64,000 nt of DNA from an uncultured cyanobacterium. GTDB taxonomy: Bacteria > Cyanobacteriota > Cyanobacteriia > PCC-9006 > JAAUQQ01. Positions within the stretch are counted from its first letter, which is position 1. Each line of letters begins with the position of its first letter. The stretch covers positions 3,296,001 to 3,360,000 of the forward strand of contig OY970368.1 of NCBI GenBank assembly GCA_963718615.1, given 5' to 3'. A program made the translations under genes and the position numbers. This document shows positions 23,925 to 48,853 of the stretch, piece by piece. The notes under the pieces are model-generated. The model did not search any database, was not told the origin of the DNA, and was given only the letters and a program-made list of their open reading frames with translations.

Positions 23925-24077
23925 GGCTCGGCAGACAAACCTGGCGAATAAAAAAATTACCAACAAAAAACCCGCTGCCAACGAGTGGCGCGGGTATTGA
24001 GTCAGGGTGCATCTACCAATTAAGTCTTCTCCGCAGCCCGTTCTCTTCCGGAACTTTTTCAAAATCTCTTTTGAGCC

Positions 24078-41973: not shown

Positions 41974-42456
41974 TTAATGCCAGTGAGACTCGTGCCAGCA
42001 GCCGTCTGGCACATGCTGGCCTGCGTAGACTTGGATTTTGCTGGGACTCATCCAGTAGACCCATACCGTTGCCGAGGGTGGGAGGCTGAGGGGAGGGCGA
42101 TCGCGCCAATCTTCAGGCCCAACGTCGAGCCAAACTTCAATTTGACGCCGTTCGTAGAGATTATCCGCAGCCTGATCGTCAGGATGATAATCCTCTAGTT
42201 CATCGAGCTGGGCGAGAGCGGTGGACGCGAGGGTTAAGACATACCCTTGCACCGTTTCTGTACCTGTTGTCATGGCAGGGTAGCCCAGATTGAGATGATA
42301 GAGGGATCCCTGGGCCCAAGCAGGTTCTGCGGCGATTAAGGTGTCGGCGCAATAGGCATTGTGATAGCGTTCTCCGGGTTTCAAGGTGCCGTAGACAAAA
42401 ACTTTGATGCAGGATAGTTCCTGGACCTGGGACGAGTGGGTTGGGGAATTTTGCAT
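41974..42456 (-). CDS. Gamma-glutamylcyclotransferase (AIG2-like)
   Basis: VFVYGTLKPG, G.LY.L..GYPA, LD.LEDY, Y.R; ATG 42456. Confidence 0.88.
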   Translation of the reverse strand: MQNSPTHSSQVQELSCIKVFVYGTLKPGERYHNAYCADTLIAAEPAWAQGSLYHLNLGYPAMTTGTETVQGYVLTLASTALAQLDELEDYHPDDQAADNLYERRQIEVWLDVGPEDWRDRPPLSLPPSATVWVYWMSPSKIQVYAGQHVPDGCWHESHWH

Positions 42457-42511
42457 GGATGGGCGATCGCTTCGTGTTTCAGGAATATGACAAAAAGGGG
42501 AGACCCACTCC

Positions 42512-43294
42512 CTAAAGTAGATAGCGCCCAAGGGCGATCGCCACCCCCGTCAGCGTCAAATTATCAATATCTCGAAAGGGTAAAGCCTCCACCAGCGTCG
42601 TGGCTATGCCAATGAGCAGTAGGGCGATCGCCGTCTCCCCCAGCCTCAACCCCGGCTGAAAATAGCCCAACCCATTCAACCCCGCGAGCATCACCCCGCT
42701 CAGCCCCACGCCCCCTGCAAACATCGCCGCTGAACCGGCCCAACTTTTCTCCGTGCTCAGGGGCAATTTCACCCGGCCAAACCGTCGCCCTATAATATCC
42801 GCCAGACCATCGCCCCCACACATCATCATCAGCGCCACTACCCCCACCGGGGACGATCGCCAAAACACCAGCGTACAGACCATAAAAACCAAGCCGTAAA
42901 ATAACGGCCCTCGCAAAATCTCCCGAGGATTGCCGCTGCGGGTCATGGCTTGGACAGCAGCCGGATCCTGGAGGAATCCCAGGCCGATTGCAACAAACTG
43001 AAGAACAATCAGCAGCGGGACGCAAACTGCGAAATAGCGGGCTTCGGGGCGATCGCTAAACAGCACCCAGGTTAGGACAAACAGCGGCCCCGTGCCAATG
43101 TGAATAATTTTGCGGCTGAGCTTGGGCTCCAGAAAATTTCGCTGGGCCAGCCCGTTGATCAAGCGTAACCAGGAAAGGGCGATCGCCAGCGACAGAGCCG
43201 CCGCCCCTGCATCCCAAACCCAATCGTTCGTCCAATCGTGAGCCCAATTCCAATTCCAATTCCAAATCTTGATCGTGACCCCGTCAAATTCCAT
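42512..43294 (-). CDS. Phytol/farnesol kinase, plant VTE5/FOLK type
   Basis: SRKIIHI, ARYFA..VP, TRSG..REILRGPLFY, FWRSSP.G..AL.MMCGGDGLADIIGRRFG..KLP...KSWAGS, DNLT. Confidence 0.85.
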   Translation of the reverse strand: MEFDGVTIKIWNWNWNWAHDWTNDWVWDAGAAALSLAIALSWLRLINGLAQRNFLEPKLSRKIIHIGTGPLFVLTWVLFSDRPEARYFAVCVPLLIVLQFVAIGLGFLQDPAAVQAMTRSGNPREILRGPLFYGLVFMVCTLVFWRSSPVGVVALMMMCGGDGLADIIGRRFGRVKLPLSTEKSWAGSAAMFAGGVGLSGVMLAGLNGLGYFQPGLRLGETAIALLLIGIATTLVEALPFRDIDNLTLTGVAIALGRYLL

Positions 43295-43303
43295 AGACAA
43301 GTT

Positions 43304-43342
43304 AAAAGGCTCTGTGTTTGCCGAAGCATTGCACCCAGAGCC
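43304..43342 (-). terminator. Terminator-like hairpin with cUUCGg loop, ~10 nt upstream of the kinase ATG
   Basis: Minus strand GGCTCTG-GGTGCAA-TGC-TTCG-GCA-AACA-CAGAGCC-TTTT. Confidence 0.7.
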
Positions 43343-43546
43343 AAAAGGAAAGTGACTTAAATTTTAAGACTTTGGGAATGAAAATAAAATCCCCGCAGTC
43401 CGTTAGAGGTTTAGAATTAGGAGTCTAGAGATAGAGAGTCGCACCGAAGTGCAGATAGAGGGTCGAAGATAGTGCCTGGGGAAATCCACCGAGCCTTAGT
43501 GGCTTCAGTGGCTGGTGCTAATTGGCACTTAACCCTTCGGCGATGT
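43304..43546 (-). ncRNA. Candidate ~240-nt structured RNA (family not recognised)
   Basis: TATAGT -10 (43551-43556), long nested stem with strand-diagnostic G-U pairs, GCAC-UUCG-GUGC hairpin, terminator at the 3' end, no ORF. Confidence 0.5.
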
Positions 43547-43713
43547 CCTTACTATAACCGTCCCCCTAGGCTTGTGGAACAAGAAACGGTGAAGACCTAC
43601 GGGTAAATCTGTAAAGTTTCGGATACTTGGACCGAATGGGGGTCAAACCGTTGGGAGAGATATCCGTGATTCTCCCTTTGGTCAGTACATTTGAGCACTC
43701 TCTGAGAGTCGAC

Positions 43714-44838
43714 CTAGGCGTCGATCGCCCCACCACAGGAACTCCCCGATCCTGCGGTGCAACCATAGCAGTGTCGCCCTGTCACGACGCTTCGCTGGGC
43801 AAAGTCCTCGGGGCGAAAATTCTGTAGCGTGATCGGTGAACCATCGGGATATTGGGCTTCCAGATCGAGCATTTGATTAAAGTCACAGTCAAAAATCCGC
43901 CCGTCCCAGCCGATGGAAAGCGTATTGCGACACATCAGCCCATCGAGCGTCGCCGGGTTAAAGGCATTGACCAACAGCGTCATGTAGCTTTCCAGATTAC
44001 CGGAGGCTTCTAGCCATTCCAGGTAACGGGAGATGGGCATATTATTGAGGGCAATGAGGCGATCGAAGGTGACGCCATGGTTGCGCTGGAGCCCCCGTTT
44101 CCACTCCTGCTCGGCTTTACCCTGGTTCCCCGCCAAAAATGCACCGACGGGATTGGTCATCAGTGTTAACCGTCGTTTGGGATCTCCCTGGCCATAGCCT
44201 GCGCCATTGAGGCGATGCAGCGCTTCGATGGATTTTTCGTAGGTACCGTCACCGCGCTGGGCATCGGTGTTACGTTGACGGTAGTGAGGCAGGGAGCATA
44301 CGACCTCAACGCCCCGTTCCGCTAGCCATTCGGGCAAATCTTCTCGTCCCGGCAACAGTAAAACCGTGAGGTTACAGCGATCGATCACCTGCTTCCCCCG
44401 GTTCACACATTCATCAACCAGATAGCGAAAATGGGGATTGAGTTCCGGTGCACCGCCGGTAATATCGACGGTGTGGGCCGAGGTCTGATCCAAGGCTTGC
44501 AGACAGGCATCAATGGTGGCCCGGTCCATGTTTTCCTGGGTGCGATCCGGCCCAGCGTCCACATGGCAATGGCGGCAGGTCATGTTGCAAAGTTTGCCGA
44601 TGTTGATCTGAAAAATTTCGAGCGGGGCTGGTTGTAAGGCTGTCTGGCCCGTAGCGGCGATCGCCGCTGCAAACTCACCCCCCTGGGGCAAATCAGCTAA
44701 ATTCAAGGCGTTCAGATCCGCAAGCTGTTGTTGGGGGTCTGCGAGGGGAGAATGGCGACGGTGAAGCGATCGCGTGGGTTTCGCGCCAAATTCAGGGCGA
44801 TCGAGATCGGCGAGGTCGAGGGGTGTGGTATCAGGCAT
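43714..44838 (-). CDS. arsS: Arsenosugar-biosynthesis radical SAM protein
   Basis: QINIGKLCNMTCRHCHVDAGP, DITGGAPELNP, DRCNLT, QRG.G, NNMPISR, MCRNTLS, DCDFNQML, HCYGCTAG.GSSCGG. Confidence 0.9.
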   Translation of the reverse strand: MPDTTPLDLADLDRPEFGAKPTRSLHRRHSPLADPQQQLADLNALNLADLPQGGEFAAAIAATGQTALQPAPLEIFQINIGKLCNMTCRHCHVDAGPDRTQENMDRATIDACLQALDQTSAHTVDITGGAPELNPHFRYLVDECVNRGKQVIDRCNLTVLLLPGREDLPEWLAERGVEVVCSLPHYRQRNTDAQRGDGTYEKSIEALHRLNGAGYGQGDPKRRLTLMTNPVGAFLAGNQGKAEQEWKRGLQRNHGVTFDRLIALNNMPISRYLEWLEASGNLESYMTLLVNAFNPATLDGLMCRNTLSIGWDGRIFDCDFNQMLDLEAQYPDGSPITLQNFRPEDFAQRSVVTGRHCYGCTAGSGSSCGGAIDA

Positions 44839-44938: not shown

Positions 44939-45268
44939 TTACATGGACATCTGCTGGGCTTGGTCCATCATTTGTAGCCCGTGGATGAGGGAAGCTCCGC
45001 CTCGAATTGCTGTGGCAACGTGGACGGCTTCGGTCATTTCTTCTAGATCTGAGCCCTGCTGGAGTGATTCTTTGGTATAGGCTTCGATGCAGTAGGGACA
45101 TTGCACTGTATGGGCAACCGCGAGGGCAATCAAGGCTTTTTCCCGTTTAGACAAGGCTCCGTCGTCAAAGACGGATTGGTAATAATCAAAGAACTTTTTG
45201 GCGAGCTCCGGGCTGCCTTCGCCGATTTGGCTAAACTGGGGCAAATGTTCGCGCTTGTAGTAGTCCAT
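44939..45268 (-). CDS. AhpD/CMD-like protein of the arsS-associated subfamily
   Basis: YY...L..F..I....PELA.KFFDYY..VF..GALS.REK.LIALAVAH..QCPYCI.AYT, AVHV..AIRGGASL.HG.QM. Confidence 0.88.
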   Translation of the reverse strand: MDYYKREHLPQFSQIGEGSPELAKKFFDYYQSVFDDGALSKREKALIALAVAHTVQCPYCIEAYTKESLQQGSDLEEMTEAVHVATAIRGGASLIHGLQMMDQAQQMSM

Positions 45269-46129
45269 GCAATTAACGATGAAAATGCGATAAATTAAGA
45301 GGCGACCTGCAAGACGTGCCAGCAGATCTTGCAGTTCTTGTTCATCCTAGCGATGAAACCTGAAGGAAAGCTGAGAACTTCAGGAAAATCGAGCGATCGG
45401 GTTGAAGTTTAGTGAGAGTCTAAGATTTAGTTTGAGCCTAGAGGCGTTAGATGCCTTGTGGGTGCCTAGATGCCTTATGGGGGTTGTGGGCGATCGCCCC
45501 TACTCTCCCCCTCCCTAAACCTCCAGAAAAACCGCTAGATCATCCATGCCACGCTCAAACGCCACAGAGTGCGGGGCCTGTAATTCCACGGAGCAAAAAC
45601 CGAAGCTTCTCCGGCAGATTTCAGAGATGGTACTCCAATTCATTCAGTAGTTAAACTCATTTTTTCAAGTTTTGAGCGAGCGTATCTGATGCGCCGATAC
45701 GATTTGATGCACTTTAGTCTAGAAGTTTAGCTAAAAATTGAGATTAAAGCCAGTTGTCATAGGGCTTTTGACAGATCTATTCATGCTCAGTGATTACCAG
45801 GCATTTTGTACAGATTTCCTCCGCAATCATGTTGAGGTCAATCACAACCTCTGACTATTTTAGAGCCGTAGACACTCGATAGAAAAACGGGGAGTGGGGC
45901 AATCGTAAGTTCATCGCTCTCTCGGAGCCTTAGCTAATCGTTGGAAATTAGAATTTAGAGTAAGTTTGGCGATCGCTTCGTCCTGCTCTCGTCCTGCTCT
46001 CTCAGAACGGGATCATGCTGGAGACAGTTTGAGCCATTGCTAAAAATCAGGGTTTTGCAGCTACGGTCTCTGATTAGAGATTGGAGATGAGTTCGTGCAT
46101 TAGATTACTTGTGGGGAGAACTTCTTTCA

Positions 46130-48853
46130 ATGTTTCAGCTAAGCCTTAAGCCCCTTGCTTTAAAGTCTGTTCATTTACTGCTTCTTTTAGGGTCTGCCTT
46201 TCCATTCGCCTGGGGTAATCTTAATCCTGCTTGGGCACAGGAATCTACTCAGCAAGACTCAGTTCAGCAAGACTCAGTTGTACTAGAGACCGGAGCACAA
46301 ACCTTAAAAATTCCCTCACGACTTAGCATTCAGCACAGCAGTTCTAGCGCTGGATTTGACGGTTTGACCAGTCTGAGTGGCTTTATTCCTCTAGAACAGT
46401 TATCTGGTGCTCATATTACCTTTATAGAGGGCGATGTCTTACTGGATAATGGTGCAAACCTTGGTTGGAGTCTAAGCTTGGGTCATCGCGGCTATAGTTC
46501 TCAGGAAAATCGCGTGCGCGGCGGCCATATCGGCATTGATGGCCGTTCAACGGATGAAAGTACCTTTTATCAACTTGCAGCCGGTTATGAAAGCCTAGGC
46601 GATCAGTGGGATGTGCGATTCAATGGCTATTTGCCCATTGGCGAAACCACCAATACGATCCGAGATGTTAACTTCGACAGTGGTTTACAAACTTCGACGG
46701 CCTTTCAATCGAATCAATTGGTTCTTTCTGCAATTCGTGAACGTCAGCGAATTCTTCAAGAAGAAGAAGCCCTCGGGGGTTTTGATGCGGAAGTAGGTAC
46801 AAAACTCAGTCGCTGGAATGGGGGAGAACTGACGGGAGCGATCGGCGGCTATTTGCTAACGGGCGAAGAGACTAGCCTCGGTGGCCAACTGCGTCTATCG
46901 GCGAACTTCAAATCTAACTTTAATGCGGGAGTTGCCGTTCAGCATGACGGCATTTTTGGCACTAATCTTGTGGTTTCTCTCGGGGCAAGTCTGCCCAATC
47001 TGCGATTTCAAAAACAGGAAGAGCAGAAATTTCAAACCGAAAATGAAGTTGCTATTCGTTTAAGAGATCCCCTTCATCGTCGTTCAACCGTCGCAGTTCA
47101 AAGCCGCAATAAGTCTGAAATCTCCTTTGAATCGACAACGGCAGCCCTTAAAAACCCTGAAGAAGAACAGGAGTATCGATTTCTTCATGTAGACCTTGCG
47201 AAGGGAGCGGTTGCAGGGGATGGGACCTATGAAAATCCATTGGGTACAGTGGAGGCGGCGATCGCCCTAATCAACAGCAACCCCAATACCTATAGCGATG
47301 GTAATACGATCGTCTACGTCGATGGTGAATCTGCTCTAAGCACGACGATTCCTGGATTTGTCCTCCCCGATCGCGTCAGTATCCTCTCCCAAGGACCCCA
47401 ACAAACGATTGCGGGCATGTCTTTTCCCGGCTTCCCCACGACCCCGACGCGTTTACCCTTTTCAGCACAAGCCAATTTCAATATACCGAATAATAGCGCC
47501 CCTAAGGCGAATGGCGTAGCGGTGTTGTTACCCGATTCTGGAGATAATGTTTTTCCTGTGATTACGGGAGGAGCAAATGCGGATTTAGTTACACTTGGTA
47601 ATAGCACGGTTCTGGCGGGTTTCCAAATTCAAAATGCATCCCAACATGGCGTTACGGCATCCAATGTCAACAACGTAGAGCTACGCAATAATGCGATTTC
47701 TGGTTCTGGGGGGAACGGCATCTTTTTGGATGATGTGGGGGGTAGCGCGACGCTGTTTGATAACACGGTTACGGGGTCGGGCGATCGCGGTATTTTTGCC
47801 CGCAATACCCAAACCAATCAATCTTTGGATGTTGCGATCGCAGGCTACGACCTCAATAACAACCGAGTGGGGATGGAGTTTGCAGCGATTGCTAGCACCA
47901 CAGGACCTCAGGTGCCTGCTCAAATTATTGCCATCGGCCCGAGTCTTAGCATCAATACCAGCAGCGGTTTACCCGGTGGTACAGCGCTCACCAATTCTGT
48001 CTTGAACAGCACGGATGAAGGGATTCTTGTCCAGGCTACAGGGGATGCCTTACTCACGAGTGCAACCCAGGAATTCACGTTTGACCAAGGCACGATTGAT
48101 GGGAGTGGTGGTGCCGGTTTAAGCGTTTTGGCCAATGTCGGTGCCCATGTTCAGGAAGTTAATGTGAGGAATAGTGCGATCGCCAACAACGGCGGTGCGG
48201 GCATTCAAATCGTCAACGGAACGCCGCCAGCGGGGGCCACGGTAACCGCAGCATCCCAAGAACTGATCATTCGCAATAACAGAATTGACAACAATGGAGG
48301 CGCGGGCATTGATGTGGCGGTAGGCGATGCGAGCAGTCAGGAATTAGTCATTCGAGGGAATCAAATTACTAACAATGCTGGGGGGGGCATTAACTCGATC
48401 GCTCGGAACGTTGCGATTCAGGAATGGCGGACGGATTCTGCGACAGGAGATGCGGGGATTAATGAGAATACGATCACGGGAAATGGGGGTGAGGCGATCG
48501 CCATTAATGCCCAAGATTTGGCTATCTTGCCGATTGTGAGTGTGGTGAATAATGAGATTTCGGGGGGGGGATCGCCGGATGTGGCGATCGCCACCACCTC
48601 TACCCCAAGTTCTCCAGGAACGCCAACGGCTTGTGCTGTAATTTCTGGCAATCGTTTGGGGGGAGCAATTCGCCTGACTGGGGTCTCAACGGTGTTATCG
48701 GGTGGGCTACCGACCTTCCAAGTTCAGGATTTGCTCAGTCTATCTAATTTAAATAATGGAACTCCAGTGGTCTTTTCTTCGAATCTTTTGGGTACTGTAA
48801 CGACACCAGACACTGCTCCATTTAGCAATGAAACGGGTGGCTGTATTCAATAG
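46130..48853 (+). CDS. Inverse-autotransporter-type beta-barrel plus right-handed beta-helix protein
   Basis: Signal peptide AWA-Q; barrel motifs YQLAAGYESLG..WD.RFNGYLPIG, GFDAEVG, HD.IFG, RL.DP..R; GDGTYENP start of PbH1-like repeats (I..N.I..N.G.GI). Confidence 0.75.
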   Translation: MFQLSLKPLALKSVHLLLLLGSAFPFAWGNLNPAWAQESTQQDSVQQDSVVLETGAQTLKIPSRLSIQHSSSSAGFDGLTSLSGFIPLEQLSGAHITFIEGDVLLDNGANLGWSLSLGHRGYSSQENRVRGGHIGIDGRSTDESTFYQLAAGYESLGDQWDVRFNGYLPIGETTNTIRDVNFDSGLQTSTAFQSNQLVLSAIRERQRILQEEEALGGFDAEVGTKLSRWNGGELTGAIGGYLLTGEETSLGGQLRLSANFKSNFNAGVAVQHDGIFGTNLVVSLGASLPNLRFQKQEEQKFQTENEVAIRLRDPLHRRSTVAVQSRNKSEISFESTTAALKNPEEEQEYRFLHVDLAKGAVAGDGTYENPLGTVEAAIALINSNPNTYSDGNTIVYVDGESALSTTIPGFVLPDRVSILSQGPQQTIAGMSFPGFPTTPTRLPFSAQANFNIPNNSAPKANGVAVLLPDSGDNVFPVITGGANADLVTLGNSTVLAGFQIQNASQHGVTASNVNNVELRNNAISGSGGNGIFLDDVGGSATLFDNTVTGSGDRGIFARNTQTNQSLDVAIAGYDLNNNRVGMEFAAIASTTGPQVPAQIIAIGPSLSINTSSGLPGGTALTNSVLNSTDEGILVQATGDALLTSATQEFTFDQGTIDGSGGAGLSVLANVGAHVQEVNVRNSAIANNGGAGIQIVNGTPPAGATVTAASQELIIRNNRIDNNGGAGIDVAVGDASSQELVIRGNQITNNAGGGINSIARNVAIQEWRTDSATGDAGINENTITGNGGEAIAINAQDLAILPIVSVVNNEISGGGSPDVAIATTSTPSSPGTPTACAVISGNRLGGAIRLTGVSTVLSGGLPTFQVQDLLSLSNLNNGTPVVFSSNLLGTVTTPDTAPFSNETGGCIQ

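Follow-up and report, generated by a model that had tools for sequence, protein, structure and literature searches.

A predicted small RNA gene with a conserved promoter block downstream of arsS in a small cyanobacterial lineage

What, if anything, is encoded in the unannotated stretch between arsS and a kinase-family gene of an uncultured cyanobacterium? The locus lies on contig OY970368.1 (assembly GCA_963718615.1), of which we analyzed positions 3,296,001 to 3,360,000, a stretch of 64,000 nucleotides (nt) termed the window, whose first letter is position 1 in all coordinates below. It belongs to a 6.1-Mb single-contig genome (G000), the order of which comprises one family with eight genomes in the collection searched, and the genes neighboring the element are all on the minus strand. 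An earlier analysis based on the letters alone, termed here the sequence-only reading, had proposed an unannotated structured RNA of about 240 nt at this place, either a novel small RNA (sRNA) or an attenuator or riboswitch of the downstream genes. On balance our data lean towards the first of these possibilities, namely a predicted, independently transcribed non-coding sRNA gene of ~240–260 nt with its own promoter, located directly after arsS and confined to a small cyanobacterial lineage. This reading draws on a promoter, an RNA core and a terminator recurring in three genomes, on conservation above the neutral level, and on compensatory changes within one hairpin. We judge the element to be real because it is conserved in two other genomes, and not because of its folding energy.

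Homologs, for which the sequence-only reading had proposed a DNA similarity search, were not obtained in this way, as a BLAST-type search of the intergenic region over 61 genomes returned the locus of the window's own genome only (1/61), but synteny and a covariance model yielded two further members, one in G001, a genome of another genus of the same family, and one in G003, of the same family. By synteny, a related element was found in the arsS–kinase spacer of G001, comprising a TATACT box, a GUCC-UUCG-GGAC hairpin, the words CUAGAC..CUAAUU and CCAAAGU, and a strong terminator, and a sequence-pattern search matched two of five genomes. The covariance model was built from the cores of the window and G001 and run over 151 genomes of the class, resulting in five matches at an E value up to 1, three of which are real (G000, G001 and G003). 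G001 scored 121 bits and G003 50 bits, with E values of 1e-8 or better, whereas the matches in G037 and G146 (E 0.4 and 0.98) turned out to be noise when their sequences were read. Together, the known members amount to three, with one copy per genome.

The genomic surroundings of these three copies differ on the two sides of the element. It is located directly downstream of arsS in all three genomes, and the kinase gene follows it in two of them, the exception being G003, where the element is followed by a convergent transfer RNA (tRNA) gene and unrelated genes, and where the kinase was not found in a genome that is 88% complete. The tRNA gene of G003 (L016:1796-1868, minus strand, 64.7 bits) converges on the terminator of the predicted sRNA, and the synteny of G003 with G001 breaks directly after this terminator. 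In G001, the 245-nt spacer between terminator and kinase contains a short tandem duplication, in which ggcccaacgtttct occurs twice (L003:1268-1300, plus strand). As arsS and not the kinase is the constant partner, we place the predicted sRNA gene at the 3′ end of the arsS operon.

Beyond these members the distribution appears very narrow. The family has a third genus, the sister genus g3, where searches located arsS in two of five genomes but no element behind it, a negative result limited by one g3 contig that ends ~390 nt after arsS. A search for the promoter pattern in metagenome contigs gave no matches, and neither did the covariance model in 80 metagenome arsS loci of at most 78% identity, a selection out of 554 relatives. 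A looser promoter pattern returned ten stretches from a collection of species-representative genomes, of which the covariance model confirmed two, their scores being those of G001 and G003; the remaining eight were chance matches in unrelated phyla. Among four DNA runs compared with the locus, a 362-nt contig of a relative (run X1) spans positions 43411–43746, differing at 9 letters and by 13 gap letters, and near-identical fragments are present in one metagenome. This contig has 12 bases inserted right after the arsS stop codon (43714) and one base deleted at 43637, in both cases upstream of the conserved promoter block.

This promoter block is the most conserved part of the element, ahead of the RNA itself. 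The −10 box TATAGT noted in the sequence-only reading is present on the minus strand at 43556–43551 and is conserved in both G001 and G003. A promoter scan paired it with the hexamer TCCACA at a spacing of 16 nt (9/12 matches), and consensus −35/−10 elements were called by the scan in the window as well as in G003. The −35 element is partial, reading TCCACA in the window, CGAACA in G001 and CTGACA in G003, with an ACA(A) part that is invariant in the three genomes. Upstream thereof, we identified four 8-base-pair (bp) direct repeats in an 11-bp phase, which in the window read 5′ to 3′ from 43616 to 43576 as CTTTACAG att TACCCGTA ggt CTTCACCG ttt CTTGTTCC, followed by 19 nt and TATAGT. The corresponding boxes are CTTTACCA / CAACCGGA / CTTCACGG / CTTAACGA in G001 and CTTTACCA / TAGCCCGC / CTTCATGG / CTTAACTG in G003. 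Repeats, partial −35, −10 and the ACA at the predicted start keep their spacing among the three genomes without a single insertion or deletion. As judged computationally, the element is preceded by a putative promoter of its own, as expected of a trans-encoded sRNA gene.

To relate this conservation to a neutral expectation, we used as a proxy the four-fold sites of those arsS codons for which the three genomes agree in the encoded amino acid, of which 28/110 were invariant (25%) at a pairwise identity of 41–48%, close to saturation. In the promoter block from −80 to −1, 42/79 columns were invariant (53%) with a single gapped column (binomial p 1.4e-7 versus the proxy), and in the RNA core, consisting of the UUCG hairpin and the CU-rich stretch, 25/43 ungapped columns were invariant (58%, p 5.6e-6), a figure that is somewhat inflated, as the alignments were optimized for identity. 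Neither the sequence upstream of about −95 nor the sequence after the terminator could be aligned. These values bear directly on the reading that the element has no function, its similarity being residual ancestry and its folds chance. Modest folding z-scores, the very narrow distribution and the near-neutral level of much of the RNA body fit such a reading. On the other hand, the arsS four-fold sites are near saturation while promoter block and core retain 53% and 58% invariant columns, the flanks are not alignable, and the changes in the UUCG hairpin are compensatory, so that we regard an element without function as very unlikely.

The layout of the repeats suggests the type of regulator. 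Since 8-bp direct repeats with 3-bp linkers are the layout of sites bound by regulators of the OmpR/PhoB family, a response regulator of this family probably controls the predicted sRNA promoter, with SphR as the leading candidate. The cyanobacterial SphR site is described as a series of at least three 8-bp CTTAACCT repeats separated by 3-bp linkers (PMC1906773), and the element shares with such Pho promoters the tandem repeats and linkers upstream of a TAnnnT −10 box (PMC1906773). Repeat number and 11-bp phase fit the Pho-box layout in 3/3 genomes, with a partial match in sequence: box 2 of the window is degenerate, and only box 4 of G001 and G003 comes close to CTTAACCT. We quantified the match with a simple score derived from the consensus, using genome-wide windows of G000 as background. 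The array of the window reached 33.5, which corresponds to the 99.9th percentile, a level reached or exceeded by 11,052 genome windows, and the arrays of G001 and G003, summed by hand with the same score, reached 39.5 and 38.5, near the 99.999th percentile of the G000 background. For comparison, a pstS-like array of the window's genome scored 40.

This genome carries six 11-bp-phased CTTAA-type boxes upstream of a pstS/sphX-like gene at G000:C1 ~4352300-4352373 (minus strand), outside the window, which probably represent a genuine Pho box of this organism, and the 11-bp period of such an array is a further likeness to the element studied here. The differences are that the window boxes deviate at position 4, that box 2 is degenerate and that the score is unexceptional genome-wide; moreover, the distance from the end of the last box to the −10 box is 19 nt, compared to the 10 bp quoted for E. 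coli (PMC1906773). The highest-scoring windows genome-wide were a noisy mix, a look-alike promoter upstream of a radA-like gene was dropped after its sequence had been read, and the region upstream of the arsS operon contained no clear phased repeats.

The features of the locus are compiled in Table 1. The predicted RNA is ~242 nt long in the window, ~241 nt in G001 and ~258 nt in G003, and its body can be divided into a variable 5′ domain, a UUCG-capped hairpin, an unpaired CU-rich core, a short hairpin followed by CCAAA(G/A)U, which is conserved in the three genomes, and a terminator.

Table 1 Features of the arsS–kinase locus in window coordinates
Feature	Position	Strand	Basis or remark
Predicted sRNA, ~242 nt	43304-43545	minus	predicted start to end of U tract
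Four 8-bp direct repeats, 11-bp phase, 3-bp linkers	43576-43616	minus	sequence read; conserved in G001 and G003
−35-like hexamer TCCACA	43573-43578	minus	promoter scans and alignment; overlaps last repeat
−10 box TATAGT	43551-43556	minus	TATACT in G001 and G003
Predicted transcription start, invariant ACA	43544-43546	minus	5-7 nt after −10; predicted from three-genome alignment
5′ domain, rod of nested helices	43459-43545	minus	specific to window genome
UUCG hairpin UGCAC-UUCG-GUGCG, 5 bp (fifth pair U-G)	43440-43453	minus	conserved in three genomes
Unpaired CU-rich core, CUCUAUCUCUAGACUCCUAAUU and following bases	43395-43439	minus	candidate base-pairing seed
Small hairpin GGGGAU/AUUCCC, then conserved CCAAAGUCUUAAAA motif	43362-43394	minus	fold and alignment
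Terminator-like interrupted stem, cUUCGg loop, UUUU tail	43304-43342	minus	sub-canonical
arsS, arsenosugar radical SAM gene	43714-44838	minus	TIGR04167, 410.8 bits, cut-off 300; conserved upstream neighbor
Arsenosugar-associated peroxidase-like protein	44939-45268	minus	TIGR04169, 172 bits
Diacylglycerol/polyprenol (phytol) kinase family gene	42512-43294	minus	naming from relatives
GGACT/AIG2-like protein	41974-42531	minus	

The 5′ domain had been described as a rod of nested helices, and in the folds of the minus strand it is indeed present, but it is not conserved. The helices AGUGCC/GGCACU, CCACUG(A)/(U)CGGUGG and GCC/GGC were found in minimum-energy folds, whereas the outermost helix differed between folds, being GGGUU/GACCC in one and CGAAGG/UCUUCG in another. 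The first 87 nt fold with a z-score of −2.61 (3/200 shuffles as good), yet the homologous 5′ domains of 108 nt in G001 and 123 nt in G003 are no more stable than shuffled sequences (z −0.27 and −0.48), and the sequences of this domain are barely alignable across the three genomes. Three G-U pairs on the minus strand, which had been taken to fix the orientation, were recovered, two of them within the folded rod and the third as the basal pair of the UUCG hairpin.

The hairpin described as GCAC-UUCG-GUGC, in contrast to the rod, is present at 43453–43440 and conserved with compensatory changes. All 15/15 cells are paired in the three sequences; two pairs are changed on both sides (C-G to U-A and A-U to C-G) and one on one side. 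The RNAalifold consensus of the three full RNAs contained the UUCG hairpin as the only reliably supported structure. The pyrimidine-rich stretch that follows the hairpin holds the word ACUCCU at 43424–43419, which had been proposed to resemble an anti-Shine–Dalgarno (SD) sequence. This idea is supported in part, as ACUCCU itself is not conserved but UCCUA occurs in the unpaired core of 3/3 genomes. We could not detect a conserved small open reading frame (ORF) among 30 ORFs of at least 15 codons compared all against all by BLASTP, the best cross-genome match spanning 25 residues (E 7e-4) between two genomes of the same genus.

Words of the type CUAU(A)UCU occur in three copies in the window, four in G001 and five in G003, raising the possibility that the RNA binds a protein or acts as a sponge, titrating a protein or another RNA through these words instead of pairing with messenger RNAs (mRNAs). 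All three RNAs share these words, which are located in or close to the conserved core and partly form tandem units of ~16 nt. Their abundance is nevertheless reached by shuffled sequences, with the top 5-mer count attained by 113, 852 and 109 and the top 6-mer count by 132, 996 and 144 of 1000 shuffles of the three RNAs, and we know of no cyanobacterial partner with CUAU(A)UCU specificity. We consider a sponge or protein-binding role of this kind highly improbable.

At the 3′ end, the terminator with a second cUUCGg loop that had been reported ~10 nt before the kinase start codon could be confirmed. It consists of the hairpin GGCUCUG...CUUCGG...CAGAGCC at 43342–43308 followed by UUUU at 43307–43304, ends 10 nt before the kinase ATG (43294), and folds with a z-score of −1.82 (11/200 shuffles as good); it is probably leaky. 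At the equivalent place, G001 and G003 contain canonical terminators of unrelated sequence, the one of G001 being strong (z −5.2) and ending ~245 nt before the kinase ATG, so that a terminator is found there in 3/3 genomes. An intrinsic 3′ terminator, as expected of a trans-encoded sRNA gene, is hence seen in canonical form in the two homologs and as an interrupted stem with UUUU in the window.

Because terminator scans revealed no terminator-like site between the arsS stop codon and the element's terminator in any of the three genomes, the transcript of the arsS operon probably also ends there. This raises the question whether the stretch is just the 3′ untranslated region (UTR) and terminator of the arsS operon, perhaps serving as a stability or processing element, with the promoter-like block binding a protein and giving rise to no transcript of its own. 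Besides the absence of an intervening terminator, such a 3′ UTR would agree with the position of the element after arsS in 3/3 genomes, and the separate start near 43545 is itself a prediction from the alignment. A 3′ UTR would, however, not need phased repeats arranged with a −35, a −10 and an ACA, and it is precisely this block with promoter layout that is the most conserved and free of insertions and deletions among the three genomes. We therefore grant the 3′ UTR reading a small chance and retain the independent sRNA gene as the preferred interpretation.

The second possibility raised by the sequence-only reading was that the element is an attenuator or riboswitch, i.e. a long 5′ leader of the kinase–GGACT operon, in which the promoter serves the kinase and the terminator is the regulated stop. 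In the window this is suggested by the distance of 10 nt between terminator and kinase ATG, with no other promoter-like site between the two in a promoter scan, and the kinase follows the element in 2/3 genomes. Furthermore, the proposed alternative pairing of the 5′ end (CGCCGAAG) with CUUCGGUG does exist and forms when the 242-nt transcript is folded computationally. For the window, G001 and G003, its predicted energies are −13.4, −5.4 and −15.2 kcal/mol, and the probabilities of the UUCG hairpin are 0.6, 0.97 and 0.38, respectively. The pairing between the 5′ end and the UUCG hairpin is thus predicted in 2/3 homologs, namely the window and G003, and a switch based on this pairing is possible according to these folding models.

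Several observations nonetheless speak against a leader. The alternative pairing does not involve the terminator and is weak in G001. A leader would be expected to be constantly linked to the downstream gene and to contain a conserved multi-helix sensor domain with covariation, whereas the linkage is seen in two of three genomes, and we found no conserved aptamer-like multi-helix core, the 5′ domain not being conserved and the conserved structure consisting of a 5-bp hairpin. No riboswitch or leader of Rfam matched. Since both homologs uncouple the element from the kinase, G001 by a strong terminator ~245 nt ahead of the kinase ATG and G003 by a locus with a convergent tRNA and unrelated genes, in a genome of 88% completeness in which the kinase was not found, the leader reading is disfavored and in our estimation unlikely. 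Independently of this, the terminator of the window is weak and located 10 nt before the kinase ATG, so that read-through could supply a kinase–GGACT transcript, and read-through into the kinase is possible in the genome of the window.

In line with the proposed novelty, the element does not belong to a known RNA family: Rfam 15 yielded no family in the region of the window at gathering score or at an E value up to 10, and no match at the homologous loci at an E value up to 1, with the exception of terminator-driven leader matches far below threshold. The best match within 43200–43800 was mir-7918 with 19.5 bits against a threshold of 80, covering the terminator stem only. The element resembles the cyanobacterial sRNA families of Rfam 15 (Yfr1, Yfr2, NsiR1, 6S and others) as a candidate for a short intergenic structured transcript, and differs from them by the lack of a covariance-model match. 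The sole match of the window at gathering level was to NsiR1 (nitrogen stress-induced RNA 1) at 23963–24018 on the minus strand, with 41.2 bits at a gathering score of 39; NsiR1 has been described in heterocyst-forming cyanobacteria, and its match in this lineage may deserve a look. A narrow literature search retrieved no paper on the RNA studied here.

Two known systems offer instructive comparisons. The sRNAs of the DapZ/MicL type of enterobacteria are 3′-end sRNAs with their own promoter and a terminator common with the upstream mRNA. The element shares with them a putative promoter at the 3′ end of a coding operon, an apparently shared terminator and the conserved upstream linkage; it differs in that the promoter occupies the intergenic spacer, 95–135 nt past the stop codon, instead of being embedded in the coding sequence. 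To our knowledge, Hfq-type chaperoning is not established in cyanobacteria, which marks a further difference.

A cyanobacterial parallel is PsiR1 of Synechocystis sp. PCC 6803, a phosphate stress-induced sRNA under the control of Pho boxes, which is also part of a joint transcription unit with the downstream sll1552 (PMC6596454). Likenesses are the promoter with putative Pho boxes, a discrete RNA (here predicted) together with a possible joint unit with the downstream gene, and the narrow phylogenetic distribution in both cases (PMC6596454). PsiR1 is ~500 nt long with two similar small ORFs, whereas no conserved ORF is found here, and it precedes an sll1552-type N-acyltransferase gene instead of a polyprenol/phytol kinase family gene (PMC6596454). 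By these comparisons the element would be an analogue of PsiR1 and not a member of its family.

A number of results weigh against an independent, phosphate-responsive sRNA gene. As to structure, the RNA as a whole folds barely better than shuffles; for the entire stretch, the minus strand has a z-score of −1.98, with 9/200 shuffles folding equally well, and the plus strand one of −1.64 (14/200). The covariation check that had been suggested delivered the two compensatory pair changes in the UUCG hairpin, but the same result was matched by 51/500 shuffles, and with only three sequences covariation cannot reach significance. The conservation is likewise restricted, as 66/207 ungapped columns of the whole RNA are invariant, with 104 gapped columns, placing it near the neutral level outside the core, for which the figure given above is the inflated one. 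At the two ends, the terminator of the window with its four U was not called by the consensus scan, and the Pho-box match is weak in the window's genome; boxes 1, 3 and 4 carry T, C and G, respectively, at position 4 in place of an A, leaving room for another OmpR-family regulator. Finally, when a 34-nt seed was scanned for duplexes with 5108 crudely called gene starts, neither an outlier nor a functional theme emerged, the neighboring and pstS-like genes ranking between 1314 and 4234 of 5108. A separate duplex scan for targets with a long seed was uninformative.

Turning to the neighboring genes, the kinase-family protein encoded at 42512–43294 matched no Pfam or NCBIfam family. Its relatives number in the thousands, and the best 120 listed, the window's own protein aside, are 57–74% identical; in their source records they go by phytol kinase or diacylglycerol/polyprenol kinase family, which makes the kinase label of the sequence-only reading reasonable. 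The N-terminus of the protein (43225–43294, minus strand) carries a tryptophan-rich run, IWNWNWNWAHDWTNDWVWD, partly encoded by TGGAAT hexamer repeats. This extension appears to be specific to the genome of the window, because the relatives cover only 81–98% of the query. Elsewhere in the window, a 914-residue ORF at 46109–48853 on the plus strand had no NCBIfam match at E 1e-5.

Taking the independent sRNA gene as the preferred reading, the element could operate as follows. Transcription would start near 43545 from a sigma-70-type promoter with a partial −35 and the −10 box TATAGT, driven by an OmpR/PhoB-family regulator at the four upstream repeats. Our best guess for the signal, prompted by the resemblance of the repeats to the cyanobacterial Pho box, is phosphate stress with its link to arsenate, which would induce the RNA. 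The resulting transcript, composed of the variable 5′ domain, the UUCG-capped hairpin, the unpaired CU-rich segment and the intrinsic terminator, would most likely act in trans, its CU-rich core with the anti-SD-like UCCUA pairing with purine-rich, SD-like sites in mRNAs. The terminator would be common to the sRNA and the arsS operon transcript. In the genome of the window, read-through past the weak terminator might also supply the kinase–GGACT transcript, in a way comparable to PsiR1 with sll1552 (PMC6596454).

A bolder version combines these elements into a dual-function RNA, in which a PhoB-type-activated, trans-acting sRNA shares the terminator of arsS, and this leaky terminator, maybe modulated when the 5′ end pairs with the UUCG hairpin, also gates the phytol/polyprenol-kinase–GGACT operon, tying arsenic and phosphate stress to isoprenoid lipids; we regard this combination as rather improbable. 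If the predicted RNA is expressed, it would constitute a new sRNA family peculiar to a cyanobacterial lineage that has been little studied, and if the reading holds true, its constant place behind arsS and its promoter of the response-regulator type would provide a handle on the coordination of arsenosugar synthesis, phosphate stress and possibly prenol-lipid recycling. Otherwise, it would be one more lineage-restricted bacterial sRNA candidate, of a common class and introducing no new principle.

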